Origin: Yuukianura sp. NJ FZ-2021
Lineage: Eukaryota
Length of the DNA stretch: 64,000 nt
Direction: 5' to 3'
Assembly: GCA_046563655.1 (NCBI GenBank)
Contig: CM102290.1
Span: 7,936,001 to 8,000,000 of the forward strand
Shown: positions 16,181 through 63,633 of the stretch, one piece after another
Layout: each line of letters begins with the position of its first letter
How positions within the stretch are numbered: the first letter of the stretch is position 1
Program-made: the position numbers and the translations under genes
The notes under the pieces: generated by a model
What the model was told of the DNA's origin: nothing
Databases searched by the model: none
The model's input: only the letters and a program-made list of their open reading frames with translations

Positions 16181-16982
16181 TTACTTTAAACATCGTTCAA
16201 AGTAAACGGAGCCTACGTAACCGCCTCGCATGGCCTTGTTTACATTGGACTCAAAGAGACGGCGATTCGATTGCAGAACGTCAGCAGCTTCTTTGTTGAG
16301 AGGGTCTTCAGGATTAGGCTCCTATAATTATTAAAACGAAATTAAGAAATGGCAACAAAAGAAAAAAAAAACAAGTTAGCAGTTAAAGTCAACTTAAAGT
16401 TGTGGATCTAATCGAATCAAGTTTATAGAAATGGTAAAGCTGCAGGACCAACGATGACTTACAAGAAAGAGAAACTGGAGTCCGTAAATGATAGAACTGA
16501 TTGTAAGGACTGGCTTCCAGTCTTCGCGGAGGATGTTGAGACAGACGTTCCCTTCAAGGTCGATGTTAGGATGATAGACTTGGGTTTCACATTTGACTTT
16601 TGGTGGTTCGTGTGGATAATTCCCGCCAACACGGAAATTAAAAGTAAATCGACCTCCTTTGTAGAATCCTTCGTCTGGAGTAATAGACAACTTGAAATTC
16701 AGAATATCATCTGGATCCGGAAAGTCAGTTGAACATGTCTTGGGCAAGTTCAGTTCATTTAGATCTATTGAACAGAAATGGGATCATTCTTTGCCTAAAC
16801 AACTAAAACTAACAATAATAGTTAAAAGCCGATGACGAATAATACTCTGAGTATTATTTGTTCTAACCCTTCATAACTCTGAGCTGAGCTGGAGATGATC
16901 TCTTTTGCGTCGATGTGGATGATGTCGGAGCCGAGGACTCCCCATCCTTCTTCTGCTGCTTCAAAGAAAATAGCTTCAGCAT
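16181..16982 (-). CDS. UBE2M: NEDD8-conjugating enzyme Ubc12/UBE2M. Exons 16982-16868, 16764-16463, 16321-16181
   Basis: N-terminal [12 protein letters not shown] docking peptide; [23 protein letters not shown] catalytic motif; C-terminus [13 protein letters not shown]...[16 protein letters not shown]. Confidence 0.96.
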
Positions 16983-19727: not shown

Positions 19728-20571
19728 ATGTTTCGGGGAATCGCTACAGGAACTGGACTCATACGCTCTGTATGTCAACGGCACGAAGCGTTGTCACTAG
19801 ACACAGTGCGTCGAATTACCACAACTGGTGCACCGCAGAAAAGACTGGACATTAAAGAGCCAGAGGGATGGCCGATTTACAACGAGCAAGTGCATCTTCC
19901 TACCGCACCGGGTGAAACTCCGCGTCCTGCGGTATGTTAGATACTCTAAACAAATCAACTTACTCTAACTTAGAGTCTGTTGATTTGTTTTCAATCGCTA
20001 CAATGCTGGTTGTTTGTGATATCAAAGCTGAATTTACTTTCTTCTTTTCAGTATATTTGTCATATGAAAACGAATTTAAAGTACAGTCCATTGAAGCTGT
20101 GGTACATCGCTTGCCTAGTGAGAGGAATGCAAATTGATGATGCTATTCGGCAACTTGACTACATCAAGAAGAAGGGAGCCAAATTCGTAAAGGAGACGCT
20201 AATTGAAGCTCAAGAACTAGCTGTTCAAAAGCACAATGTAGAATTCCGTACAAATCTGTGGGTTGGTAAGGCTGTGTACTCGAAAATTATTAGTTTTAAT
20301 AGCAAGGCAGTCTTCATTCAGTTCTTGCCGATTTACTATTTTGTTTCTAGCTGAGTCGTTTACTGGGAAAGGATTAACAATCAAAGGGATTCGGCGACAT
20401 GCTCGTGCCAGAGTTGGGTTGATTTCTTACCGTTACTCTCACTACTTTGTTAGACTCGAAGAAGGAACTCCGCCTGAACATTACTACCAGCAGAAAATTC
20501 CTGACGGACCGACATTACTCCAAGAATGGATAAAGGAGAGGCGAGACATGAGAATTGACGCAACTTTGTAA
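19728..20571 (+). CDS. mRpL22: Mitochondrial ribosomal protein L22. Exons 19728-19931, 20052-20265, 20351-20571
   Basis: RPAYICHMKTNLKYSPLKLWYIACLVRGMQIDDAIRQL...HNVEFRTNLWVAESF...GIRRHARAR...YSHYFVRLEEG; Arg-rich presequence-like N-terminus; phases compatible. Confidence 0.93.
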
Positions 20572-32827: not shown

Positions 32828-33958
32828 TGAGTTATCGGAATTACGCCTTCAGAAAAATTTAGTTTCAATTTCGAATATAATTACTTTTGTTTTAACAACC
32901 GAAACACATCGTGCTTTGGAATTTCACGAAAATACGTAATTTCAAACAGCATCCGAACAAAGTCTCGTCCAGAAAGTTTTGCATTGTCTACACTAGGCAC
33001 AAAGCCTGATTTCAAGAACATTAAAGTTTGCTGTTTTTTTTTGGAATTTGTGTTACTAAATAAATGGAAATATAAGAGACGAAAAATATGGATGACCTTG
33101 TAAAAGATTGCATTGCCTGAGAATCACAGTGTGAAGAATCCAATCAGGAGTAAATTTTTACACGTAAATTCACTTTAGGAAATGAGAAATGTTCACGATT
33201 CTGCTTTCTCTACTTTACCTGAAACGAGGGTTTACCTCAACTTCGTTCAAAGGAGGTGAAGCAAGGATAATTTCTGGAAAATTCGATCATAGAAAGGAAG
33301 ATTTTGACTCGCATTATGTTTAGAATATTTTCAGAAGCGGCAGCAATATCATTGTGTACTTTGCAAAATTTTGAAAAGAAGCTGAAAACTTAAAATTGAG
33401 AAAGTTTCAGTCCTTTATACAGTACAACTAAACATGGGTTGCATTGTTCCTTTCAAACCATTTTAGCCCGTAAACTCTCTCCAGCAGATGCTTGAGGCCT
33501 TCCAAGGCCCAGTGTATTTCTTAGGATGACGATAATTCTTATTAATTAATTAATTAATTAATAATTATTATTAATTAACTTATTTAGCCAACTGCTGAAT
33601 GTTATCAACGTTTTGTTTCAAACGTTCCAAAATTTTGCCAATAAACGCCCAGCTCTGATGAATCGGGTGACTCATGCTGACGTAAAATGAACGAACTTGT
33701 TTCATCACTTTTTCACCGGCCACGAGGAATTGACAGGGGATCATCTGTTTTCTACTTTAAATTTAAAGTTTAATTAAGGTTAACTTTAAATTTAGCATCG
33801 GGCGGAGATACAGGAAATCTACTTGATTAATCACCAGTTAAAAGAATCGAGAAATAAGGTACACTGAGTACTGATTTACTTGTACACGGATAGAACGGAG
33901 AACGGACTGAGAAAGTTAAATTTTTTGTTTGCCATTGTTCTTCAGGTCGAAAACAACA

Positions 33959-36900
33959 ATGGATCTGGAGCGTAAAAGTAATCAGAAGTTGGACTATATA
34001 AAATCAATTGAAGATGGAATTGGGAAGCTTTGGGAAGTTGAAAAGATGGGAGAGGCCAACGCAGTATCCAATGAAAATGGAGAAGTCAAAAAATTCTTCA
34101 CTTGCTTCCCATATCCATACATGAATGGAAAACTGCATCTTGGACATACATTTTCTCTGTCCAAATGCGAATTTATGATCCGGTACAAGAAAATGCAAGG
34201 ATATGAGGCGATATTTCCTTTTGGATTTCATTGTACCGGTATGCCAATCAAGGCATGCGCTGACAAGTTGGCAAGAGAAATGGAGCTGTACGGAAATCCA
34301 CCAAACTTTCCCAGCGAAGGGGCGAGTGCTGCCGACGCGTCGAATGAACAAGACGATGAGGTTGTAATCATGGATAAGTCTAAGGGGAAGAAGAGCAAGG
34401 CTGTCGCTAAATCTGGAGGAGCCTTGTACCAATGGGAAATTATGCGCAGTCTCGGTATTCAGGATGAGAAGATTCCTGCGTTCGCGAATACAGAAACATG
34501 GCTGGAGTACTTTCCGCCGCTGGCTGTCAATGATCTCAAAAGAATGGGAATTTATGTAAGTACGGCTTTTTATAAATGTGGAAAAGACACTAATTAAGCT
34601 TTTTTAAAAACTTCCATTGACAATTTTGTTTATAGGTTGACTGGCGAAGATCCTTTATTACAACAGATGTAAATCCGTACTACAACAGCTTTGTTCAGTG
34701 GCAGTTCAAGACGTTGAAAAAGCGAGGGAAAATTGAATTCGGCAAACGCTACACAATTTTCAGTATTGTGGACAAGCAACCGTGCATGGACCATGATCGA
34801 TCAACTGGTGAGGGCGTGGGCCCGCAGGAGTACACTTTGGTGAAACTGCAACTCGTGGAGCCTTATCCAGAGCCTTTGAAAGACAAAGTTAACAAGGACG
34901 ACAAAATTTTCCTGGTTTGCGCCACGCTACGTCCAGAAACCATGTAAGACGAAAAATTCTGGAGTTTCAACGAAATCGAAGTGAAAGTCATTCATGGAAA
35001 CTTTTTTCTAGGTACGGACAAACCAATTGCTGGGTACATCCAGACATTGTTTACCAAGCTGTACGGAATTTGAAAGGAGAGATATTCATTGGGACCAAAC
35101 GCTGCTTCCGGAACATGGGTTGTCAAGATATCGTCGACAGTAACATTCCCCCAGTTGCATTACTGAAAGGAAGTGAATTAATTGGAGCACCACTTTCAGC
35201 TCCATTGACTTCCTATAAAGTCATTTACGCATTACCAATGCTAACCATCAAGGAAACCAAAGGTACAGGCGTTGTTACTTCTGTCCCATCAGACTCTCCT
35301 GATGACTACGCTGCCCTCACCGACTTGAAGAACAAGAAGGCATTTCGAGAGAAATATGGAATTCTGGATAACATGGTTCTTGACTATGAGCCAGTAAGTT
35401 GCCACTTTATGATTAGCTGTTTACAACACTTTCCATTTTCTGAGCATCACGTGAATTTTTGCAGATTAGTGTCCTCAGTATTCCTGGACTCGGAGACATG
35501 GCAGCAGTTGAGGTGTGCAAAGACATGAAGATTCAGAGCCAAAATGACACCGAGAAACTGCGTGAAGCCAAAGAGAAAGTATATCTTCGTGGATTTTATG
35601 AGGGGGTCATGACCATCGGGCCTCATATGGGCAAAAAAGTTCAAGAAGTCAAGAAACTCGTACAGGAAGAGTTGATTAGTTCAAATCAGGCAATTTTATA
35701 CTACGAACCAGAGAAATCCGTCATGTCCAGGTATTTTATTTTGATGCTATCCAGTAAGAATTTCTGCTTATGTTAAGTATTATTTGGACTTTAACTTCTA
35801 CTTGTGTTTATAGGAGTGGCGATGAATGTGTTGTTGCTCTCTGCGACCAATGGTACTTGGACTATGGAAATAAGGAATGGAAGAGTCAGGCAAGGGCTTC
35901 CCTGGATAACATGAACCTGTATCATGAAGAAGTAAAAAAGAACTTCAACGCAACATTAGACTGGTTACACGAGCATGCGTGTTCAAGACTGTATGGGCTC
36001 GGCACTCGTCTCCCTTGGGATGAACAATGGCTAATTGAGTCTCTATCAGATTCAACAATTTACATGGCTTACTACACGATCAAGCACATTCTCCAAGGCG
36101 AGGGACTTTTACAACACTCTGGTCCTGTCCCGTAAGTTTTTGGACGCATACAAGCTACTAATAAGTTCGATTGGAATGTTGATGCTTGTAAAACGTCGTT
36201 CGATTTCATTGTTTGATTAGAGTTGAAGCACTAACGGACGAAGTTTGGGATTACATCTTCTTTACCGGAGCAAAATATCCAACTAATTCAACAATTGACA
36301 AGGAAATACTAGAGAGGGCTCGGAAGGAGTTTCAGTTTTGGTATCCAGTGGATCTGAGGACCTCTGGAAAAGATTTAATTCAAAATCACTTGACTTACTT
36401 CATTTATAATCACATTGCCATTTGGGAAAATGAACCAAAAATGTGGCCTCAAGGAATTCGGGCTAATGGTCACCTTTTGCTCAATTCGGAGAAGGTAACT
36501 GTAACATACGAACAACTTGCAAGGTCAAACATTCAAACTCTTTATGTTTTTCATTTTCTACAGATGTCTAAGTCAACTGGAAACTTCATGACGCTGACGG
36601 AAGCATTGGACACATTCGGAGCTGATGCCATGCGTGTATCTCTGGCGGATTCTGGAGATGCAATTGAAGACGCGAATTTTGTCCTCTCTGCTGCTGATAA
36701 TGCTATTCTTCGGCTGTACAATGTGATTGAATGGACAAAAGAAATTATGGGTGATGTGAAATCCCTGCGCCAGCAACGATCTACCGAATTTGATTTCCAA
36801 GATAGTTACTTTGAAAAGTAATTAGTCAAATTCATTTGATTTTAGTTTGGATATTCTCCTAATCCTTGGTTATTTTTATTCAGTTTGATGCATTCTCTGG

Positions 36901-37847
36901 TCGAGCAGGCTACAACATACTACGAGAATATGGAATTCAAAGAAGCACTAAGAACTTCATTCTTTGAAATGCAAAGTGCCCGCGATACTTATCGTGAGTT
37001 GGTTGGACACGAGAATATGCTAGCCGAACTCGTATTGGAATTCATTGAACTACAAACCCGAATTTTGGCTCCAATTTGTCCTCACATCTCCGAATACATT
37101 TGGAGGGATGTCATGGCTCGCGTACATTGTTACAAATTCTGCTGCAACTCTACTTGCAAGCACTCGGTTTTTAATTGAACTTTCTATTTGGTTTAGGAAG
37201 GCTCAGTGTTTGCAGCAGGTTGGCCTGCTGTGAAGAAAGTTGACACCGTGGCACTACATTCTGGAAACTATTTTCTTCAAGCTGTTCATGGCTTCCGTGT
37301 CCGCCTCACTACGTTTGGGAAAGGAAAGAAGAAAAGTGCAAAGGCTGTTGCCATCGAGAAGCCCACAGCAGGCACTATTTGGATAGCAAAAGACTATCCA
37401 CCATGGCAGCGTATCGTTATTGATCACCTAGTTGAAGAATTGAAAGCATCGTCAACGATTGACAACAAGAAAGTTGCTGCTGCTCTTGCTCGAGTCGAAG
37501 GTCTGAAGAAGCATCAGAAAAAGTTATGCCATTTGTACAGAGAATCAAAGAGAGAATCGACCAGGACGGGAATGCAAACGGACTCAAAGGCGTTCTGGAG
37601 TTTGATGAAGCGGAAGTTCTTACACGGAACTTATCATACCTAACGTCTACTTTGGACGTAAGAGTAAAACTTTTAGAAGTGCACTTTTAGAAGCCATTGT
37701 AACTGACTCCTAACGGTAATTTTCTATTTCCAGTTGAAAACACTTGTAATTCGACCTGTGGATGAAGCGGAAGAGAATATCCGGGAAGAATGCTGTCCTG
37801 GAAAGCCGTTGATTATGTACACATCCGATGAACCCGTCTTAGCATAA
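33959..37847 (+). CDS. LARS1: Cytoplasmic leucyl-tRNA synthetase. Exons 33959-34555, 34636-34943, 35012-35393, 35465-35730, 35814-36131, 36221-36494, 36564-36817, 36884-37121, 37197-37657, 37734-37847. Apparent 1-nt deletion in the A-run at 37518-37522
   Basis: [13 protein letters not shown] (HIGH motif); CP1 editing [20 protein letters not shown] split across an intron; C-terminal ECCPGKP. Confidence 0.95.
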
Positions 37848-38003
37848 ACAATTGTGAAGAACAAGCTGAGAAGTACTCTCAGTTGAAACTTTCTAAAGAA
37901 ATACATACGAATTAAATCAATACATGCATATTACAACACTTACAAATGCTACAGTATTTATTACACTACACCATTCTCATAAAACTATTCGTCTTCCTTG
38001 TAG

Positions 38004-38560
38004 GAGGCCCAGTTAGTTCAATTTTAGTGGACATCCTAAACGAAATCCAAGGAAAGAGTTTTACAATTCAGGATTTCAAAGACACTTCTTTCTTCGTCTC
38101 AGCCATGGAAATTTGTCGTTACCACTTACAAGATTTAGACTTGGCTAACCGATTGAACCAACTCCTTCATATCGGCGATAACTACGATCTAATCGGAGAT
38201 TCCTATAAGGAATCTGTGTACTAGTGAGTTTGAGTTACATGATAACTGTTTTTCATACAGAATAGCTTGTTTTTAAAACTTTGCTTATTTTTCAGTCGAC
38301 ACTTTATGGGGCTGAAATGCATTTCCGAACCGCTGGACACCTTTATGGAATTTTATGATACGTTTGTTCCGAATATCTACACTCCAGAGCCGCAGATCAT
38401 TGAGGTAAGAGGCTACTTTTCCGACGTTGAGTAACTGAATGCTAACAAACTCGTACATTTCTAGGAAATTTTAAAATCTGTTCAAATCAATGAGGGATTT
38501 GAGCACATTCCTCGTATTTGGTCTGACATGATCATCTTTGAGCAAACACATCGAGATTCG
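38004..38560 (+). pseudogene. PTCD3: PTCD3 (mS39) internal/3' exons, copy 1 (38004-38223, 38296-38404, 38465-~38560); no upstream PTCD3 exons and C-terminally truncated
   Basis: GPVSSILVDILNEIQGK...DTSFFVSAMEIC...LIGDSYKESVYYRHF...VPNIYTPEP...IPRIWSDMIIF; recognisable homology fades after about 38560-38650. Confidence 0.8.
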
Positions 38561-38981
38561 AGAAGCTCTCGTTACACTTCTTGTTGCCATTATTATTCAC
38601 AAAAAAACCAACAACTCAAAAAGTGCCACTGCGGCCTAACTTCTAGTTAATTTAAGGTACACTTTTCAACATTTAGTAAAAAAAAACGTATATTGAAATG
38701 GACTACGTTAATGTTAATATTATCAACACAGCACGGTGAAGTCATTATGGTACTTACAAAATTTTTTTAACAATTAATCAGTCAAGTACAAGATTATGAA
38801 ATTTTTTCTTTTTTTATATAAATTCAGTAATCAATCAAATATTATTGATTACAATACGTTTTTTGACAATCGAGAAATTATAGCTAGCATTTTAGCTCAT
38901 GATTAGCATTGGATTGCATAAATTATTTCAGTTGAGATTTGTGTGTTTTGTTTAGACGTGCTTGTTGCGTAGTATTGACTG

Positions 38982-40528
38982 TTAGAATTCACCAGAATCA
39001 GCATCACTCGGAGTCTCGTAGGTAACATCTCCGCATGGAATCGATTCTTCTTTGATTGTTGGTAGTACTTGGACAGTCTTCCCAACAAACCGATTTGCCA
39101 TACAAAGTCGATTACCAAATGCTCCAACTACACCGGCATCATCTTCCTCGCTCTCAGAATCCGTGACTTCGATGTCTTCCGGTAGAATCGGACGCGGTGT
39201 TAGCTGCAGTTCCGGGTACGGAACAACTTCTTCGATCGGAGTTGTGCCAGTTGCTGCGTGTTTCAAACCGGGACCGAAGAAAGGTACTTGGTGATCCTAC
39301 AATATAATTTGATGATTAAATATGGTATAATTCTATAATTTGATTGATAGTTCGTATTATTTTACTTACACGTTTAATGACTCGAAAGATGCGATGGAGC
39401 AGTGAAGCCATCTCTGGAGCCTGATCAGGCTTGCTGTCTTCCTCAACGCACATCGAAAGGATTTGATCCAGCTTCTTTTCAAGCGCCGTTCGTTCGATTA
39501 CAACTTGACTCAGTACGTCCCCAACGAGCTTGACCTAATTCAACAAGCAATCAATTAATTGAACCGCACTGATCACTTCTAAATTTTCCTATTAATTGTG
39601 TTGTCTTTGTTACCTGACAGTTTAGCTCGTTCAGTTTTTCATGGACACCAACCATTTGCGGCACCACATGCTTCGGAGCTGAGGTAAACCCTGGGAGCAA
39701 ACCTTTGTTTGAAATGTCACCGATCAATGCTCCAGCAGTTTCCGGCCGGCGTGTCACAAGTTGAGTTGGAAGAGTAGACAATTTCTTGGCTTGCTCGTTG
39801 TGGCTTCGGTCGCCTGAGGAAGCTCTCGGAATTTGTGATCGGCCACGCCCAGCACTTGAGAGAGTCGATCTGTCAGGCGGTGGTGGTGGTGGAGCCACTG
39901 GTTCTGGACGACGATACACGTAGTTGGCGTCGTAGAACATCTTAAACCATTGAGCAAAGTCGTAATTGTCATTGTATCGACCCTTGACCAGCTTCTCGAT
40001 CGGGATAGCCTGTTCACCAAATCAAAATAAATTAGCATTGCCATTTTGGGAGCTAAATACGAGCGATGTACTCACACGATCGACACCACAGCTGTTGAAC
40101 GCCATTTGCAAGATTTTGAAGTTCATGATGTACTCGTTCTCCAATTTCGCGTCGTACTTAACCCGTTTCAGCTGAACAGTCCCACCTCACAACGAAAATC
40201 AGAAAGTCAGTTAAGTGCTTACTTAACATTAATCATGAATGTAACTGAATATTAATGTCATCGCTGTCTTACTTCCGAAGAGATGATCCATCAGTCGACA
40301 ATAGGCTGCTCCGCTGCAGAGTTCTTCTACTTTTCGGATATCGGTTGTCAGCGTATTGTTAATCCAGCTCAAAATCTCGTGGCGACTCACAGGGTCAGCG
40401 GTGATGTTGGTGTGTACAATGTTAATGGCCTTCTTCCCGGCAGTCTAGAACAAGAGCAACGATTAATGACAAAAGTAATAGTAAATAATCGCAGGATTTG
40501 CAACGACGTAGAATAGTCTTACCTCCAT
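38982..40528 (-). CDS. Divergent EB1/MAPRE-family microtubule plus-end protein, copy 1, 387 aa. Exons 40528-40523, 40444-40273, 40185-40076, 40009-39614, 39534-39370, 39296-38982
   Basis: CH domain [13 protein letters not shown]...[19 protein letters not shown]...[17 protein letters not shown]...[29 protein letters not shown]; coiled-coil/EBH-like segment; acidic tail ending GEF*. The frame is open throughout. Confidence 0.85.
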
Positions 40529-40805
40529 GATTCACTGTTCTGTTACGCTAGTTCCAAAGATGGACCAATTGACTTGATCGACGAACGCAAGTTTCAAATT
40601 AGTTGAAGAAAAGTTCAGGATTTGTAGCAGCACTTTTACAGACGTCCGCTCGCCTCGGAGGTCGAAGAGTGAATTACCGAAAAACCGCGTTTTTTTTTCT
40701 CTTCCGTTGCAGGTCAATGACCTCTTGTGGGTGTTTGTTATTCCGCGCCCCTCCTCCCCTCCACTATTTCATTACCAGAGTAACGTGGAAGACAAAGAAA
40801 GAATC

Positions 40806-41382
40806 ACATAGATGGGCATAAATTAAATAAACTAATTTCATAATTACTTTTAAAATTAGGTTATACTGGGAATAAAAACAATACTGGGAACGTTGCCTCC
40901 CGGGAAAGAACTCTACGAAATCTATTTACTTTGAATACATACAATACCTTATGAATTTTTAAACCTGCTGCGGCAGGTGAAAGTGAAAAATATGAAAGTA
41001 TGAATAAAGTCTTACATTAGGATAAAAAAAAAAACTTTTAAAATTACTTAAAAATCTCCAAATTACTTTTAAAATTATTTAGTAAATTTAAATAAAAATT
41101 TTATTAATATGAAATAATTTTTTTAATGTTTTTAGTGATGGTTAGTAAAGGCGTTTTGATTTTCCAAAAAAAAAAAAACTAAAAAACTACACCTGCCATT
41201 GGCAGGTGCATGTTTAAATTTGTCAAAGTTTTAATAAAATCTTTAGACTAAAAAACATTAAAAAAATATTTCATATTAATAAAATTTAATTTATTAAATA
41301 ATTTTGAAAGTAATTTGGAGATTTTTAAGTAATTTTAAAAATAATTATGAAATTAGTTTATTTAATTTATGCCCATCTATGT
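40806..41382. mobile_element. Foldback/MITE with ~140-bp inverted arms, copy 1; left arm interrupted by a poly(A)-tailed insert
   Basis: acatagatgggcataaattaaataaactaatttcataatta... versus ...taattatgaaattagtttatttaatttatgcccatctatgt; central hairpin cacctgcca-t-tggcaggtg. Confidence 0.85.
40859..41033 (+). mobile_element. 175-bp retroposed fragment (3' end of a LINE or mRNA) with a 13-bp TSD
   Basis: ACTTTTAAAATTA at 40846-40858 and 41034-41046; AATAAA at 41003-41008; A-run at 41024-41034; absent from copy 2 and from the opposite arm of the same element. Confidence 0.8.
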
Positions 41383-41586
41383 ATGGATGCACTGGGTGAC
41401 AGGTGAGCACTAGTCTGGAATCCCACTCTTAGGTTCGGCAACAAGAAAAATCCAATTATTAAGTTTAGGAGTAAGTTAATTTGTTAGTAGTTTGTTAGTT
41501 AATTGATTAAGCAACTTTAACTACTGATATTATCTATTGATTTTAGAGAATTCAAGCTACTGAGGAACCAGTTCACCAGCGTCAAA

Positions 41587-43176
41587 ATGCGGTTTAAATG
41601 GAATCGATTCAAGTCACTGTTAAATACAACAACTCCAGGCAGGAAGCTGCATTCCTCGTTTATACTCTTGAGCAAATCTCCGCCATCATCTATGCAAAGC
41701 CAGAGCAAAAAGGAAATCGTTATTCCTCCGAAGATTGACCGTGGACCTACTGATATATTAAAGGTAATTTTTAATTTAATAGTATTGGTTCAGTTTTGCT
41801 TGATTCCGAGGAATGAATCCAAGCAAAAGGTGTCTACTAGAAATATGTTTGACTTTTATAGGCTTTAGCAAGTACGATTGGGCGTACTATACTGCCACGC
41901 ATTACAGATATCACGATGACCCATACCTTATTCCTATTTCAAATTTGTCGAAACGAAGTTATGCACTTTCGAAGGAGTCGGGAAGGAAAGCAGCGAGATG
42001 GATTCGGTAACAACATGCGGATTTATTTCAGCATCGTGTAGCTGAACCACCAGTCGAGGTCATAACAAATTCGACTCATTTTTGTAGTGTTTTTAGGTTA
42101 GTCTACTTATGTCTATCTAATTTTTAAAAATTGATTTACAGGCGTACTATCCAACACCAGTATTTTCTGAAGATTCGGTTGTTGACGAAAAAATTTTGAA
42201 ATCTCTTATCACGGATTCTCATGTCACGGATGCAATAAACGTTTACGATAAGCTTCAACTCAAAGGGACAGGTGAACCTAGCGAATTGTTCATTACTAAA
42301 AAATCGAAGTGTAAATGCCTTTATCTTACTTCCTCTACATTTTATAGAAATAAGTCGAGAGACAAAACAAAACCTGCTTGAACTCCTAGCTTACTACAAT
42401 GAGACTGAACCGCTTGACGAAGAGTGGATAGAGGAGCGCTGGTACAAAGCTGGAATGACTGGAAAGGAACGAGTTAGAAATACATGGAAGTAAGAAGGCC
42501 AATTTCCCTGAGGTGTTAGAATCCTAGTTATTAGTTTGAATTGTATTTTGTAGAGAAAATGGTCTTGCGGAGAAAATTTTTAAGGAGCTGGATCCTGCTG
42601 ATGCTGCTGCATATTGTGCATTGATTAGAGGCAGAGCAAAATATTACCAGGTAAAGACAGAAATTGTAATCGACTTAGTCATTTACATAGTACCGTGCAG
42701 GGATTTGTTGATTAACTTATGTATTTGTCCTTGTGTAGGTTTAGGTTGACAAAGCATGGCATCTTCTAAGAGAAGCGCAGGCGAAATCGTTTACACCAGA
42801 TATTGAAACGTACAACTCGCTGATTAGGATTGTTAACATGAGTCGGGACAATGGTGACCTTAGATGGCAGTTACTGCAAGTAAATTGAAATCATTTAATT
42901 TACGTTCATTTGAACTTAAACTTGATTATTTTGTCAATGTAATATGTGTTGAAGTCTACCATCTTCTTTTCTTATAGGAGTTGCTCGAAGAAATAAATGC
43001 TTGTGGGCTAACACCGAACTTGGGTACGCTGAATTCGATTTTGGAAACTTTAAGTACGATGGGATCTCGACAAGCAAAAACCTTGAGCTTGGCATTTCTG
43101 TCGGAGTTCAAAGAACTTGGAATTCAACCTTGTCTTGCATCGTACTATTACGTCCTGATTGCTCATTGCAAAGAAC
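41587..43176 (+). pseudogene. PTCD3: PTCD3 (mS39) 5' exons, copy 1; frameshift at ~41886 and premature TAA at 42008-42010
   Basis: IVIPPKIDRGPTDILKALASTIGR-[1-nt deletion]-YTATHYRYHDDPYLIP...ESGRKAARWIR*QHADLFQHRVAEP...PPR-like repeats...CLASYYYVLIAHCKE. Confidence 0.88.
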
Positions 43177-43196
43177 GTACGTTAAATCAATACATG

Positions 43197-43758
43197 CATG
43201 TCTTCCGTGTCCGCCTCACTACGTTTGGGAAAGGAAAGAAGAAAAGTGCAAAGGCTGTTGCCATCGAGAAGCCCACAGCAGGCACTATTTGGATAGCAAA
43301 AGACTATCCACCATGGCAGCGTATCGTTATTGATCACCTAGTTGAAGAATTGAAAGCATCGTCAACGATTGACAACAAGAAAGTTGCTGCTGCTCTTGCT
43401 CGAGTCGAAGGTCTGAAGAAGCATCAGAAAAAAGTTATGCCATTTGTACAGAGAATCAAAGAGAGAATCGACCAGGACGGGAATGCAAACGGACTCAAAG
43501 GCGTTCTGGAGTTTGATGAAGCGGAAGTTCTTACACGGAACTTGTCATACCTAACGTCTACTTTGGACGTAAGAGTAAAACTTTTAGAAGTGCACTTTTA
43601 GAAGCCATTGTAACTGACTCCTAACGGTAATTTTCTATTTCCAGTTGAAAACACTTGTAATTCGACCTGTGGATGAAGCGGAAGAGAATATCCGGGAAGA
43701 ATGCTGTCCTGGAAAGCCGTTGATTATGTACACATCCGATGAACCCGTCTTAGCATAA
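43197..43758 (+). pseudogene. LARS1: Duplicated 3' fragment of LARS (most of exon 9 plus exon 10), lying inside the reconstituted PTCD3 intron
   Basis: Near-identical to 37287-37847; lacks the exon 9 acceptor; has 6 A's (open frame) where the full-length gene has 5. Confidence 0.9.
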
Positions 43759-43914
43759 ACAATTGTGAAGAACAAGCTGAGAAGTACTCTCAGTTGAAAC
43801 TTTCTAAAGAAATACATACGAATTAAATCAATACATGCATATTACAACACTTACAAATGCTACAGTATTTATTACACTACACCATTCTCATAAAACTATT
43901 CGTCTTCCTTGTAG

Positions 43915-44470
43915 GAGGCCCAGTTAGTTCAATTTTAGTGGACATCCTAAACGAAATCCAAGGAAAGAGTTTTACAATTCAGGATTTCAAAGACACTTCT
44001 TTCTTCGTCTCAGCCATGGAAATTTGTCGTTACCACTTACAAGATTTAGACTTGGCTAACCGATTGAACCAACTCCTTCATATCGGCGATAACTACGATC
44101 TAATCGGAGATTCCTATAAGGAATCTGTGTACTAGTGAGTTTGAGTTACATGATAACTGTTTTTCATACAGAATAGCTTGTTTTTAAAACTTTGCTTATT
44201 TTTCAGTCGACACTTTATGGGGCTGAAATGCATTTCCGAACCGCTGGACACCTTTATGGAATTTTATGATAAGTTTGTTCCGAATATCTACACTCCAGAG
44301 CCGCAGATCATTGAGGTAAGAGGCTACTTTTCCGACGTTGAGTAACTGAATGCTAACAAACTCGTACATTTCTAGGAAATTTTAAAATCTGTTCAAATCA
44401 ATGAGGGATTTGAGCACATTCCTCGTATTTGGTCTGACATGATCATCTTTGAGCAAACACATCGAGATTC
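43915..44470 (+). pseudogene. PTCD3: PTCD3 internal/3' exons, copy 2 (truncated)
   Basis: Duplicate of 38004-38560. Confidence 0.8.
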
Positions 44471-44890
44471 GAGAAGCTCTCGTTACACTTCTTGTTGCCA
44501 TTATTATTCACAAAAAACCAACAACTCAAAAAGTGCCACTGCGGCCTAACTTCTAGTTAATTTAAGGTACACTTTTCAACATTTAGTAAAAAAAACGTAT
44601 ATTGAAATGGACTACGTTAATGTTAATATTATCAAAACAGCACGGTGAAGTCATTATGGTACTTACAAAATTTTTTTAACAATTAATCAGTCAAGTACAA
44701 GATTATGAAATTTTTTCTTTTTTTATATAAATTCAGTAATCAATCAAATATTATTGATTACAATACGTTTTTTGACAATCGAGAAATTATAGCTAGCATT
44801 TTAGCTCATGATTAGCATTGGATTGCATAAATTATTTCAGTTGAGATTTGTGTGTTTTGTTTAGACGTGCTTGTTGCGTAGTATTGACTG

Positions 44891-46437
44891 TTAGAATTCA
44901 CCAGAATCAGCATCACTCGGAGTCTCGTAGGTAACATCTCCGCATGGAATCGATTCTTCTTTGATTGTTGGTAGTACTTGGACAGTCTTCCCAACAAACC
45001 GATTTGCCATACAAAGTCGATTACCAAATGCTCCAACTACACCGGCATCATCTTCCTCGCTCTCAGAATCCGTGACTTCGATGTCTTCCGGTAGAATCGG
45101 ACGCGGTGTTAGCTGCAGTTCCGGGTACGGAACAACTTCTTCGATCGGAGTTGTGCCAGTTGCTGCGTGTTTCAAACCGGGACCGAAGAAAGGTACTTGG
45201 TGATCCTACAATATAATTTGATGATTAAATATGGTATAATTCTATAATTTGATTGATAGTTCGTATTATTTTACTTACACGTTTAATGACTCGAAAGATG
45301 CGATGGAGCAGTGAAGCCATCTCTGGAGCCTGATCAGGCTTGCTGTCTTCCTCAACGCACATCGAAAGGATTTGATCCAGCTTCTTTTCAAGCGCCGTTC
45401 GTTCGATTACAACTTGACTCAGTACGTCCCCAACGAGCTTGACCTAATTCAACAAGCAATCAATTAATTGAACCGCACTGATCACTTCTAAATTTTTCTA
45501 TTAATTGTGTTGTCTTTGTTACCTGACAGTTTAGCTCGTTCAGTTTTTCATGGACACCAACCATTTGCGGCACCACATGCTTCGGAGCTGAGGTAAACCC
45601 TGGGAGCAAACCTTTGTTTGAAATGTCACCGATCAATGCTCCAGCAGTTTCCGGCCGGCGTGTCACAAGTTGAGTTGGAAGAGTAGACAATTTCTTGGCT
45701 TGCTCGTTGTGGCTTCGGTCGCCTGAGGAAGCTCTCGGAATTTGTGATCGGCCACGCCCAGCACTTGAGAGAGTCGATCTGTCAGGCGGTGGTGGTGGTG
45801 GAGCCACTGGTTCTGGACGACGATACACGTAGTTGGCGTCGTAGAACATCTTAAACCATTGAGCAAAGTCGTAATTGTCATTGTATCGACCCTTGACCAG
45901 CTTCTCGATCGGGATAGCCTGTTCACCAAATCAAAATAAATTAGCATTGCCATTTTGGGAGCTAAATACGAGCGATGTACTCACACGATCGACACCACAG
46001 CTGTTGAACGCCATTTGCAAGATTTTGAAGTTCATGATGTACTCGTTCTCCAATTTCGCGTCGTACTTAACCCGTTTCAGCTGAACAGTCCCACCTCACA
46101 ACGAAAATCAGAAAGTCAGTTAAGTGCTTACTTAACATTAATCATGAATGTAACTGAATATTAATGTCATCGCTGTCTTACTTCCGAAGAGATGATCCAT
46201 CAGTCGACAATAGGCTGCTCCGCTGCAGAGTTCTTCTACTTTTCGGATATCGGTTGTCAGCGTATTGTTAATCCAGCTCAAAATCTCGTGGCGACTCACA
46301 GGGTCAGCGGTGATGTTGGTGTGTACAATGTTAATGGCCTTCTTCCCGGCAGTCTAGAACAAGAGCAACGATTAATGACAAAAGTAATAGTAAATAATCG
46401 CAGGATTTGCAACGACGTAGAATAGTCTTACCTCCAT
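44891..46437 (-). CDS. Divergent EB1/MAPRE-family protein, copy 2
   Basis: Same exon structure as copy 1 at offset 5909. Confidence 0.85.
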
Positions 46438-46716
46438 GATTCACTGTTCTGTTACGCTAGTTCCAAAGATGGACCAATTGACTTGATCGACGAACGCAAG
46501 TTTCAAATTAGTTGAAGAAAAGTTCAGGATTTGTAGCAGCACTTTTACAGACGTCCGCTCGCCTCGGAGGTCGAAGAGTGAATTACCGAAAAACCGCGGC
46601 TTTTTTTTGCTCTTCCGTTGCAGGTCAATGACCTCTTGTGGGTGTTTGTTATTCCGCGCCCCTCCTCCCCTCCACTATTTCATTACCAGAGTAACGTGGA
46701 AGACAAAGAAAGAATC

Positions 46717-47105
46717 ACATAGATGGGCATAAATTAAATAAACTAATTTCATAATTACTTTTAAAATTACTTAAAAATCTCCAAATTACTTTTAAAATTA
46801 TTTAGTAAATTTAAATAAAAATTTTATTAATATGAAATAATTTTTTTAATGTTTTTAGTGATGGTTAGTAAAGGCGTTTTGATTTTCCAAAAAAAAAAAA
46901 ACTAAAAAACTACACCTGCCATTGGCAGGTGCATGTTTAAATTTGTCAAAGTTTTAATAAAATCTTTAGACTAAAAAACATTAAAAAAATATTTCATATT
47001 AATAAAATTTAATTTATTAAATAATTTTGAAAGTAATTTGGAGATTTTTAAGTAATTTTAAAAATAATTATGAAATTAGTTTATTTAATTTATGCCCATC
47101 TATGT
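46717..47105. mobile_element. Foldback/MITE, copy 2 (uninterrupted)
   Basis: Same termini and central hairpin as 40806-41382, without the insertion. Confidence 0.85.
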
Positions 47106-47309
47106 ATGGATGCACTGGGTGACAGGTGAGCACTAGTCTGGAATCCCACTCTTAGGTTCGGCAACAAGAAAAATCCAATTATTAAGTTTAGGAGTAAGTT
47201 AATTTGTTAGTAGTTTGTTAGTTAATTGATTAAGCAACTTTAACTACTGATATTATCTATTGATTTTAGAGAATTCAAGCTACTGAGGAACCAGTTCACC
47301 AGCGTCAAA

Positions 47310-48886
47310 ATGCGGTTTAAATGGAATCGATTCAAGTCACTGTTAAATACAACAACTCCAGGCAGGAAGCTGCATTCCTCGTTTATACTCTTGAGCAAAT
47401 CTCCGCCATCATCTATGCAAAGCCAGAGCAAAAAGGAAATCGTTATTCCTCCGAAGATTGACCGTGGACCTACTGATATATTAAAGGTAATTTTTAATTT
47501 AATAGTATTGGTTCAGTTTTGCTTGATTCCGAGGAATGAATCCAAGCAAAAGGTGTCTACTAGAAATATGTTTGACTTTTATAGGCTTTAGCAAGTACGA
47601 TTGGGCGTACTATACTGCCACGCATTACAGATATCACGATGACCCATACCTTATTCCTATTTCAAATTTGTCGAAACGAAGTTATGCACTTTCGAAGGAG
47701 TCGGGAAGGAAAGCAGCGAGATGGATTCGGTAACAACATGCGGATTTATTTCAGCATCGTGTAGCTGAACCACCAGTCGAGGTCATAACAAATTCGACTC
47801 ATTTTTGTAGTGTTTTTAGGTTAGTCTACTTATGTCTATCTAATTTTTAAAAATTGATTTACAGGCGTACTATCCAACACCAGTATTTTCTGAAGATTCG
47901 GTTGTTGACGAAAAAATTTTGAAATCTCTTATCACGGATTCTCATGTCACGGATGCAATAAACGTTTACGATAAGCTTCAACTCAAAGGGACAGGTGAAC
48001 CTAGCGAATTGTTCATTACTAAAAAATCGAAGTGTAAATGCCTTTATCTTACTTCCTCTACATTTTATAGAAATAAGTCGAGAGACAAAACAAAACCTGC
48101 TTGAACTCCTAGCTTACTACAATGAGACTGAACCGCTTGACGAAGAGTGGATAGAGGAGCGCTGGTACAAAGCTGGAATGACTGGAAAGGAACGAGTTAG
48201 AAATACATGGAAGTAAGAAGGCCACTTTCCCTGAGGTGTTAGAATCCTAGTTATTAGTTTGAATTGTATTTTGTAGAGAAAATGGTCTTGCGGAGAAAAT
48301 TTTTAAGGAGCTGGATCCTGCTGATGCTGCTGCATATTGTGCATTGATTAGAGGCAGAGCAAAATATTACCAGGTAAAGACAGAAATTGTAATCGACTTA
48401 GTCATTTACATAGTACCGTGCAGGGATTTGTTGATTAACTTATGTATTTGTCCTTGTGTAGGTTGACAAAGCATGGCATCTTCTAAGAGAAGCGCAGGCG
48501 AAATCGTTTACACCAGATATTGAAACGTACAACGCGCTGATTAGGATTGTTAACATGAGTCGAGACAATGGTGACCTTAGATGGCAGTTACTGCAAGTAA
48601 ATTGAAATCATACGTTCATTTGAACTTAAACCTGATTGTTTTGTCAATGTAATATGTGTTGAAGTCTGCCATCTTACTTTTCTATAGGAGTTGCTCGAAG
48701 AAATAAATGCTTGTGGGCTAACACCGAACTTGGGTACGCTGAATTCGATTTTGGAAACTTTAAGTACGATGGGATCTCGACAAGCAAAAACCTTGAGTTT
48801 GGCATTTCTGTCGGAGTTCAAAGAACTTGGAATTCAACCTTGTCTTGCATCGTACTATTACGTCCTGATTGCTCATTGCAAGGGAC
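47310..48886 (+). pseudogene. PTCD3: PTCD3 5' exons, copy 2; same frameshift (~47609) and stop (47731-47733); breaks off 10 nt into the following intron
   Basis: Duplicate of 41587-43176; after GTACGTTAAA the sequence switches to unique DNA near the DDX49 3' end. Confidence 0.88.
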
Positions 48887-49108
48887 GTACGTTAAACTTG
48901 GTTTTTCAACATTGTACTTTGTTGTACAAACAAGGCATTTCCATTCTAAATTTAGAATGTTTATTTCAAACTGTTAGTGAAACTTTTGATAGAGTTTGTT
49001 CTAGAAAACATTTCGTACCTTATGCTATTCGAGTCGACCGGTTATTTAAAATAAAATTGTAACCAAACAAGTTTTCCTTAAACAGTTCAATAGAACTTGG
49101 TATTACTA

Positions 49109-51051
49109 TTACGATCTGATGTGCTTCCGTTTTGAATTAACAGTTTTTGGCTTTATAGCAAGATCTGCAACTTCTTCTTCCTCGCAGTCGCCCTCATCTT
49201 CATCGTCATCGGTCAAGTTCTCTAAAATTTCGCGTTTGCGTTTATAGATTGCTAATCTCTCCTCGATCGGGTCATCTGTCATCCTCAAAATAACGCTTCT
49301 TTTGGCAGCATTCACTTCATTTAGGATTTGAAGAACTTTTTTCTCTGATGGAAAAAAACAGCGTTGAAGATGGATTATTTTGGAATAGAATTGATTTACA
49401 GTCGTACCACTAATTTTGAGTTCAGTTAGTTTTTCCTTGACACGTTCCTCGACAGCATGGAGAAGTACGATATCACGAGCGGAAATAAATGTAACTGCTA
49501 TTCCAGTTTGTCCAGCCCTACCTGCTCGACCAAGTCGATGAATGTAGTCGGTGGCGAAGGGAACATGATAGTTTACTATAAGGTCAACCGTTTGAATATC
49601 CAATCCTAAAAACAACAAGAGACAATTAGTAAATCATTAAACAAAGTTAATTTATGAATTCTTACCTCTGCTGGCAACGTCAGTCGCAATCAGTGTTGTC
49701 ACTTGTCTAGATTTGAAGATCGATAAAGCCTCGTTTCTCTCTTTCTGTTTCATGCGGGAATGCAGTTGAATGTTTGGAAACTCTAGGTCTTTCATCATTC
49801 CTCCAAGAATACTACAGTCTCTGCCCAGAATAAAAACGAATTTTTGAAACTTATCAATCACCTGCTATAAGAAATGTTTTTTTAAAAGAATGAAGCAAGT
49901 TTACTTGCAAGTTGGTGCGAAGATCATCATTGAACGGACCGGGACGTCAAGTTCGTTGTCCCGGATCATGCGAAGGAGCTCCATAAAGTAACCATCCTTG
50001 AAATCAGGAGCAGAAAATATATAATACTGTTTAATAGTTCGATCGATCGGTAAGTCCCCAGGATTGTCAGCATTATAGTCATACACGTGGAGCTGGAATA
50101 CGAGAAAAGTTTTAATGTTAACGGTCTAACGGTCAGCGTGCAGCATTGACAAAATTATCCAGGATAATAGTAGTGGATCTAAGTGATAACTTTTCTGGGC
50201 TTACTTCCATAGAATTTGACTTTGATATCATTTTAGATACCAAACGTAGCTCATCCGTCACAGTCGCAGAAAAGAATAAATTCTGCCTTCCTAACGATGG
50301 GATGTTGTCCATGATCTGCTTCAATTGTTCGTCAAAGTCGCCCCCAAAAACACGATCAGCCTCATCGATGACTAGGAACTTCAAATTTCGGAATAAGGTT
50401 TTCGTTTCTTCTTTGTTATTTTCGAAGTGATCAGTTAATCTAAACTTGCAGAGTAAACATAATGTTTTAAGGTTGGGCATAAAAAGTCTTAGAGGTACAT
50501 TTAGTACCTTCCAGGCGTCGCGATGATGTGGACAGGTAAAGTTCCAAGTTCCTGAGACTGGTCCTGGAAGTCGATGCCGCCAATAACACAACTGACGCTC
50601 AAATGATTTCCGACGATGGACCGAAACTGGTCAGCGATTTGTGACGCAAGTTCCCGAGTGGGTGTCAAAACTAAGGAGAAACCAGGGTGTGGATCAACGT
50701 TCGAAAGTTGTACTATGGGAATTGCAAAAGCCAGTGTTTTGCCGGTTCCTGTCGGCGAATTCGCAATTACATTACTTTTAGATAGAATTGCTGGGATGCA
50801 GTCAGCTTGAACCTCTGACGGTTTTGAAAGCCCTGCGTAAATACACATAAGTCATTAAAACGTGATAGACAATTCTTTAAAAAAAACGAATGTTGTCCAT
50901 TAACTAACTAACCAAGGTCCTTGCATCGGGAAAGCATATCGGGAGTAAGTCCAAGGGCGTTGAATCCATTGTGCTTCTTGAGCACTGCAGGTACTGAACT
51001 CTTGTGTGGTAGAGCAGTTCTTGATTTTATCGGCGGCTCTTGGGTTGACAT
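49109..51051 (-). CDS. DDX49: DEAD-box RNA helicase, DDX49/DBP8-like, multi-exon and divergent
   Basis: Q motif FNALGL...KPSEVQADCIPAIL; SPTGTGKTLAFAIPI; LTPTRELASQIADQF; ATPGR; DEADR; FSAT; ATDVASRGLDI; YIHRLGRAGRAG. Subfamily assignment is from recalled motifs. Confidence 0.75.

Positions 51052-61318: not shown

Positions 61319-63633
<2,315 letters not shown>

Follow-up and report, generated by a model that had tools for sequence, protein, structure and literature searches.

Described cases in which genes moved through a permuted template come mostly from mammals. The colour-sided alleles Cs29 and Cs6 of cattle, treated by Durkin and colleagues in 2012, are said to have arisen when a KIT segment was moved by circular intermediates. 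Complex duplications formed by microhomology-mediated break-induced replication (MMBIR) or fork stalling and template switching (FoSTeS) show microhomologies of 2-5 nt, short templated insertions and point changes beside the junction. Takahashi and Innan (2020, PMC7188851) deal with duplication mediated by extrachromosomal circular DNA (eccDNA) within the human genome; Chicote et al. (2020, PMC7450558) describe segmental duplications with a circular intermediate, in which the order A-B/C-D becomes B-A/D-C; and a preprint by Zhang et al. (2026, 10.64898/2026.09.03.749254) concerns eccDNA-mediated germline insertions in mouse and human. In this work, we analyse a 64,000-nucleotide stretch of contig CM102290.1 (assembly GCA_046563655.1 of Yuukianura sp. 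NJ FZ-2021, positions 7,936,001 to 8,000,000), hereafter the window. In it, a permuted segment with most of a PTCD3/mS39 gene and an EB1-like gene is inserted at a TTAAA in the 3' untranslated region (UTR) of LARS1, next to a DEAD-box helicase gene, as an initial annotation made from the sequence had proposed; the insert is present in two head-to-tail units.

Anatomy of the insertion

When the window is compared with itself, one large feature is seen, a two-copy head-to-tail repeat (37287-43186 and 43197-48896). The copies are 99.7% identical over 3575 nt and 98.9% identical over 2154 nt; individual differences were taken from a global alignment. Tandem Repeats Finder gave 0 rows for the window, the period of this repeat being above its limit. 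Each unit consists of 625 bp from the 3' end of LARS (B in the first unit, B' in the second) and the permuted cassette (C and C'), the LARS sequence having been co-duplicated with each cassette. The initial annotation had treated 37912..48896 as a single block. Those positions are indeed the ends of the cassette, but the repeat unit starts 625 bp further left, at 37287, and a second event is hidden inside the block: the cassette and 625 bp of LARS were duplicated through a compound junction.

The order of parts within the cassette is the second part of a PTCD3 intron, the later PTCD3 exons, the EB1-like gene on the minus strand, a repeat block, the PTCD3 start and earlier exons, and the first 15 nt of the same intron. 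In tblastn searches with four insect orthologues, PTCD3 residues ~33-353 match at 41707-43178 and residues 354-494 at 38006-38560, and unit 2 gives the same picture. The circular permutation read from the sequence at the outset is thus borne out, with exact exon continuity (353|354) across the insert ends.

The two ends of the insert also behave as first described. The left end is the 18-mer TTAAATCAATACATGCAT at 37912, one of three occurrences (37912, 43182 and 43823), and the right end is GTACG-TTAAA at 48887-48896. Both map to one source point, with GTACG-TTAAA-TCAATAC rebuilt exactly when they are joined. The result is a GT..AG intron, AAAGAAC|gtacg ... cttgtag|GAGGC, in phase 1, with the codon across the splice read as C|GA. 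The sequence of the left junction (J1) and of its unit-2 twin (J3) is cgaa|TTAAATCAATACATGCATattac. TTAAA is common to both insert ends, and on the left it completes the ATTAAA poly(A) signal of LARS (37911-37916), with which the LARS 3' UTR of ~65 nt, beginning after the stop at 37847, ends. The cassette contains 22 TTAAA sites, and both insert ends fall at the same one. As a side observation, the exon end and intron start at 43174-43183 form a perfect 10-bp palindrome, AACGTACGTT, which overlaps the TTAAA breakpoint and may be a fragile site; in unit 2 it is imperfect (GACGTACGTT at 48884).

Removal of the sequence between the two outer TTAAA motifs leaves CATACGAATTAAACTTGGTTTTTCAACATTGTACTTTGTTG (empty site CATACGAATTAAACTTGG), where the LARS poly(A) signal has a GU-rich stretch behind it; the reconstructed site cgaATTAAActtgg is this poly(A) signal, in agreement with the empty site put forward in the initial annotation. 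The AATAAA poly(A) signal of the helicase gene, seen on the plus strand as TTTATT at 48960-48965, lies 49 bp further on. A compact tail-to-tail pair of LARS1 and the helicase gene is a plausible ancestral state. Among the eight joints listed for four sequencing runs, none links 43827 to 48897 as an empty-site allele would; one of the runs, from another organism, is without cover over 43643-43822.

The gene names in the initial annotation are mostly well founded. LARS is recognised by the Pfam families tRNA-synt_1 and tRNA-synt_1g on open reading frames (ORFs) 33920-34597 and 36192-36821, and by RBD_LARS1 in the unit-2 copy. PTCD3/mS39 is matched by the Pfam family Rib_mS39_PPR, by mS39 chains in the PDB and by insect orthologues; 18 homologues were found at E<=1e-5, and all that bear species names (6/18) are insects. 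The EB1 label is supported by a CH domain (Pfam) that matches PDB structures of EB1 with an E value of 1.6e-16. This gene appears complete, with an ATG of its own and then a short intron; an EB1 C-terminal domain was not recognised in it by the Pfam or PDB searches. On the right-hand side lies a DEAD-box helicase gene (Pfam DEAD and Helicase_C), with HAS1, DDX18 and DDX47 as its best PDB matches; DDX49 is a tentative label for it.

The coordinates of these features are collected in Table 1. Elsewhere in the window there are a PAS-domain exon (10392-10778), a gene for a ubiquitin-conjugating enzyme (16397-16783, minus strand), an exon of the Ribosomal_L22 family (19974-20351) and a protein kinase exon (62863-63252).

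Table 1. Features of the LARS1/helicase region, in window coordinates
Feature	Positions	Strand	Remarks
LARS1 gene body (block A)	33950..37286	+	unique, 5' of the repeat; Pfam domains
LARS 3' end, copy 1 (B)	37287..37911	+	part of penultimate exon, last exon 37734-37847 including stop, 3' UTR
J1	37911..37929	+	LARS ATTAAA fused to second part of PTCD3 intron (TTAAATCAATACATGCAT); unit-2 twin J3 at 43822-43840
Permuted cassette, unit 1 (C)	37912..43186		5.3 kb; self-comparison, tblastn
PTCD3/mS39 later exons, unit 1	38004..38625	+	residues 354 to ~517; tblastn, profile, frameshift read-through
7-bp tandem duplication	38551..38564	+	TCGAGAT|TCGAGAA; shifts PTCD3 frame; twin at 44462-44475
EB1-like gene, unit 1	38982..40528	-	ATG 40528-40526, intron after Met-Glu, stop 38982-38984
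Repeat block, unit 1	40806..41456		foldback resembling a miniature inverted-repeat transposable element (MITE), ~75 bp of further repeat, 188-bp insertion 40846-41033 in left arm
PTCD3 start codon and earlier exons, unit 1	41587..43176	+	residues 1-353
J2	43177..43199	+	gtacg, TTAAA, 13 further intron bases (TCAATACATGCAT), CAT common with start of B'
LARS 3' end, copy 2 (B')	43197..43822	+	inside PTCD3 intron that spans both units
Permuted cassette, unit 2 (C')	43823..48896		covered by contigs of runs X1, X2 and X4
PTCD3 later exons, unit 2	43915 to ~44535		part of C'
EB1-like gene, unit 2	44891-46437	-	part of C'
Repeat block, unit 2	46717-47179		part of C'
PTCD3 earlier exons, unit 2	47310-48886		part of C'
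J4 (right end of insert)	48887..48901	+	gtacg-TTAAA | cttgg
DEAD-box helicase gene	48960..50851	-	right of insert; Pfam DEAD and Helicase_C; stop near 49109

In the LARS copies, a homopolymer has five A in unit 1 (37517) and six in unit 2 (43428). Taken literally, the A5, which is in the copy contiguous with the gene body, is a frameshift through which this essential enzyme would lose the final ~55 residues encoded by the penultimate exon together with all of the last exon; the contig differences listed include no 1-nt deletion at 43428, so a homopolymer miscall is likely. Over their last 451 bp (42736-43186 against 48458-48896), the units are separated by 12 substitutions and 2 indels, while the remaining 4.8 kb of C has 5 substitutions, so that this end is about 25 times more diverged than the rest; this suggests a conversion tract, or a separate source for one end.

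Contig and depth evidence

Five runs cover the stretch: four from sample S1 (organism A), and X4, from another organism (B) and another study. All five consist of contigs, which were compared with positions 43100-50000 of the window. S1 is probably the sample from which the window was assembled.

Two of the three junction types, those of the insert ends, are spanned by contigs in S1. The left one was followed at its twin, J3, which is crossed by X1 rec1, X2 rec9 and X3 rec17 (43202/43332-43852, reaching 12 nt past the 18-mer); J4 is crossed by X1 rec7 (48852-48971) and X2 rec16 (48852-50000). Further left, contigs of X1 and X4 show the unique LARS sequence continuing into B, as the loose ends before 43197 are the window sequence 37257-37286. 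Mean word depth in the right flank (D) is 210 in X1 and 24.6 in X2; B' has 461 and 56.5 in these two runs and C' 530-570 and 53-86, and the J4 contig of X1 has 231. B' therefore has 2.2-2.3 times the depth of D, and the whole unit ~2.2-2.7 times that of the flank. Taken together, the junction contigs and the depths indicate that the insertion is not an assembler's invention and that B and C are present in about two copies or slightly more.

These observations bear on the idea that the arrangement is an assembly or haplotype artefact, with alleles or collapsed or expanded copies misjoined as two units, or with an insert that belongs elsewhere. Such an artefact would be in keeping with the differences between the copies at homopolymers 37517, 38601 and 38678, which are typical of long-read consensus errors, with contigs that have the unit-1 length at 44511 and 44587, and with the lack of J2 in the contig rows listed. 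We nevertheless consider it very improbable, given contigs across J1/J3 and J4 at depths of 461 and 231 beside a flank at 210, the raised depth of B' and C' in both X1 and X2, and the 12 substitutions and 2 indels in the right 451 bp, which make the units distinct sequences.

The run from organism B supplies a different kind of evidence. A 617-nt contig of X4, with a depth of 15.9, runs through 48324-48891 and then 43823-43864, with 5 shared bases at the joint; this is the collinear intron. Thus the uninterrupted intron, which had been deduced by joining the two insert ends, is seen directly. The same contig matches unit 1 at 7 of the 14 differing sites in the last 451 bp, which would fit a right end of unit 1 recopied from a collinear copy during the duplication step. 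Contigs from the S1 runs X1, X2 and X3 share a break point at 43823, which is the first T of TTAAA and a place where the two window copies are identical; the break fits, indirectly, a second predecessor path that reads G+TTAAA.

Two further features of the X4 graph are recorded here as observations. A 1151-nt contig covers the LARS 3' region (36599-37731, seen through 43197-43642) at a depth of 234.7, against ~5 for its neighbours; its final 29 nt repeat the sequence of its start region (36599-36627), which makes it a head-to-tail cycle of ~1.1 kb. In addition, a joint from 43863 to 48324, with a depth of 8.6 and 29 nt on the short side, closes a 609-bp cycle within PTCD3.

Source locus and closure of the cassette

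How the outer ends of the segment came to be joined can be approached from the point where PTCD3 homology is lost. The initial annotation placed the seal of a circle at 38560-38650, where PTCD3 is truncated, and took the donor to be EB1 and PTCD3 head to head with a native foldback between them. The truncation itself is real in that a profile of nine insect PTCD3 sequences finds nothing above position ~517 in the window, so that PTCD3 is incomplete, and the EB1 stop is only ~350 bp further on. However, the loss of homology at 38560 is caused by a frame-shifting 7-bp tandem duplication, and not by a breakpoint: when one of the two repeats is removed, the match to the profile (nine full-length sequences) rises from 34 to 48 bits and extends from position ~500 to 516-517, at ~38625. 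A variant contig of X2 (depth 34.5 of 97.8) lacks exactly these 7 nt; it aligns to 44552 and then merges with the contig through EB1. No contig breaks over 44553-46717 in X1 or X2, or over 44456-45395 in X4, and the paths diverge at the borders of the repeat block instead. For these reasons, we think that the seal and the head-to-head donor as first proposed are improbable, and that a convergent donor (PTCD3-> <-EB1) is more likely.

Since the 7-bp duplication is in both units, the frameshifted copy is older than the unit duplication; it is also common to organism B, because the X4 contig there has the duplication as well (no 7-nt omission is listed for it). PTCD3 exons beyond ~517 were sought in two ways. 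In the 64-kb window, tblastn with four orthologues found none at E<=1, and a C-terminal profile of nine orthologues had no match, with a best E value of 0.78. Among exon-sized PTCD3 ORFs of the same species in the protein collection there was no candidate, and a search for longer proteins returned other insects only, with <=76% identity.

In unit 2, the repeat block (46717-47179, 0.46 kb) comprises a foldback at 46717-47105 and ~75 bp of further multi-copy sequence. The foldback has terminal inverted repeats ACATAGATGGGCAT and arms of 98 nt that are 96% identical; a target-site duplication is absent from its borders in the window, which also speaks against a native foldback between the two genes. 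The block has ~10 times single-copy depth, and contig paths leave the window sequence exactly at its borders, 46717 and 47180. X2 rec11 departs at 46717 for 1423 nt, and the same 24 bases are found in X3; X3 rec21 and X4 rec30 depart to the left of 47180. Variants near the borders likewise suggest more than one version: a single-nucleotide polymorphism (SNP) at 46680 accounts for 22-29% of depth in X1 and in X3, a group of three more SNPs close by (46667-46671) is at 29% in X3 only, and X2 contains two versions of 47191-47331 with 7 differences, at depths of 33.5 and 41.4. The 30-mers that flank these diverging paths are absent from the 64-kb window; of 12 loose-end consensus strings sought there, one has a full match (X4, from 43642 to 36599).

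From this, and from the X2 variant without the 7-bp duplication, we think it rather probable that a third copy exists with the order U1-PTCD3-> <-EB1-U2, in which everything between the promoter of PTCD3 and the sequence upstream of EB1 is collinear, and that the cassette was closed through the 0.46-kb repeat block. In such a collinear donor, the C-terminal third of PTCD3 would lie beyond EB1, with EB1 nested in a PTCD3 intron.

Mechanism and comparison with known systems

The junction between the two units, J2, is compound. It reads gtacgTTAAA, then TCAATACATG, then CAT|GTCTTCC, where CAT is the first three bases of B; compared with J4, it carries 13 more intron bases, and there is a base change two positions past the switch (37291 G against 43201 T). 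Because of the 13 extra bases and the CAT, an insertion followed by a plain tandem duplication cannot yield J2; a template with an uninterrupted intron is needed, or else the strand slipped back to J1, and the junction is suggestive of replicative template switching or of templated end joining. The units are head to tail and their junctions show microhomology and templated sequence (TTAAA, 13 nt, CAT), as expected of tandem duplication by template switching, which is the best explanation of the second step, the duplication of B and C via J2. J2 also lies within an ORF of 207 codons (42978-43601) that runs from a PTCD3 exon (residues ~295-353) into the frame of the RagD-binding domain of LARS; if the intron donor site were skipped, a PTCD3::LARS chimeric product could result.

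We propose that a circular or head-to-tail template was opened at the intron TTAAA and joined by microhomology to the TTAAA of LARS, and that tandem duplication followed; for this sequence of events we consider the chances evenly balanced. At the start, LARS1 and the helicase gene would have been tail to tail, ~50 bp apart. A segment of ~4.8 kb, with the PTCD3/mS39 promoter and first three quarters and a convergent (possibly intron-nested) EB1-like gene, would have been copied from another locus, and its outer ends joined through 0.46 kb of repeat-family DNA to give a circular, or equivalent head-to-tail, template. Opening of this template at TTAAA in the PTCD3 intron and joining to the LARS ATTAAA would have used 5 nt of microhomology, presumably with no transposase involved. 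In the second step, the insert and the preceding 625 bp of LARS would have been duplicated in tandem, with a nascent strand that continued 13 nt past TTAAA on an intact-intron template before a 3-nt switch at CAT to the LARS exon. We infer the circle, the place where it was closed and the order in which the steps came; the strength of the scheme is that a single microhomology join with such a template explains in one step why both ends, with 22 TTAAA sites available, lie at the same one.

That point is also what separates the scheme from serial template switching of the MMBIR/FoSTeS type directly from a linear donor, with no free circle. The path would lead from the LARS TTAAA into the donor intron, to the upstream end of EB1, through a repeat copy, to the region upstream of PTCD3, back through the intron, to the LARS exon, and so on up to the TTAAA on the helicase side. 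The microhomology of 3-5 nt at every readable junction (TTAAA, CAT, TTAAA), the 13-nt templated stretch in J2 and the single-base change beside it are all as one would expect of such a process, and a replicative interaction is discussed for permuted duplications by Chicote et al. (2020, PMC7450558). At least 4-5 switches are required, however, and the donor segment would have to be left and entered again at one and the same TTAAA of the 22 that it contains, for which one crossover with a circular or tandem template suffices. We regard serial switching as possible but unlikely.

A transposon would be another way to move the segment, whether by piggyBac-type insertion at TTAA, by a Helitron, or as a composite made up of two MITE copies. 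The insert has TTAA(A) on either side and starts with TC after A, there is a multi-copy foldback inside it, and the palindrome AACGTACGTT stands at the right end. Each of these candidates was tried and rejected. For piggyBac, terminal inverted repeats are lacking at the ends and a transposase ORF in the block; a Helitron would have a CTRR 3' end, and here the 3' end is ...GTACG; and a MITE pair would need termini at the block ends, whereas the foldback is internal. Ten inverted-repeat pairs were found, none at the block ends, in line with the original statement that no transposon ends bound the block. The ends are halves of one ordinary host intron, uninterrupted in X4, and transposon-mediated capture is accordingly the least credible of the explanations considered. 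The insert is not a retrocopy either, since introns are retained in PTCD3 and EB1.

A bolder interpretation is that the PTCD3/EB1 unit and fragments of the locus persist as self-propagating or recurrent circular DNA in this insect lineage. It is based on the X4 graph, which forms three closed paths within 12 kb (the entire cassette via the intact intron, the 609-bp PTCD3 cycle, and the 1.1-kb LARS 3' cycle at ~46 times the depth of its neighbours). If it were true, the array in the chromosome would have come from one reintegration of active, gene-carrying germline eccDNA; we consider this a long shot.

Several points weigh against insertion from a circular or head-to-tail template followed by tandem duplication, or limit its support. 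Sequence alone cannot separate a circle from a head-to-tail template. A collinear donor over 38625-38982 puts the conserved C-terminal third of PTCD3 (~145 profile positions, 517-660) beyond EB1. No contig crosses J2 among the contig rows listed, so the tandem duplication rests on the assembly and the doubled depth of B'. The support from S1 is not independent, as S1 is probably the source sample, and since the runs are contigs, depth reflects copy number only weakly and variants are dropped. A break in X1 at 48942-48971 has no structural explanation, and breaks by themselves are thus imperfect evidence. Finally, the X4 depths do not suit a donor plus a cassette, being 12-16 for 48324-48891 and 43823-44455 and 5-6 elsewhere.

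With regard to its consequences, the event would have moved gene copies via a permuted template, circular or head-to-tail, without a transposon, and the poly(A) signal on which the insert lies is that of LARS1, an essential gene. The insert added two EB1-like genes, left the PTCD3 copies frameshifted and incomplete at the C-terminus, and created an open frame that connects a PTCD3 exon with the RagD-binding end of LARS. A limited literature search found no insect case of eccDNA-mediated germline insertion, which does not imply that none is in print.

There is a likeness to the cattle Cs29 and Cs6 alleles: the duplicate is reportedly permuted there too, and the second step reportedly carries flanking sequence of the first target with part of the insert, as B' does here. 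The cattle rearrangements are said to involve hundreds of kilobases, movement between chromosomes and a visible phenotype, whereas here a 5.3-kb insert in an insect was followed by a local tandem duplication. With MMBIR/FoSTeS duplications, the locus shares microhomologies, a templated insertion and a point change beside the junction; re-entry at one identical donor site, as seen here, is not expected of independent switches. Compared with the human cases of Takahashi and Innan, the locus is distinguished by a 0.46-kb repeat block at the probable closure and by a second duplication layered on top. The segmental duplications of Chicote et al. are similar in their reversed block order and in breakpoints with only microhomologies and short indels; they are large and human, and the present case is gene-scale and lies on a poly(A) signal. 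Zhang et al. likewise deal with structural variants that stem from circular DNA integrating in the germline, theirs being an experimental study and population survey in mammals. The kind of event is thus already known, and this case has its order reversal, single shared source point and microhomology junctions; its value is not in a new principle but as a clean, gene-sized example, apparently from an insect, that can be read at the level of single bases.

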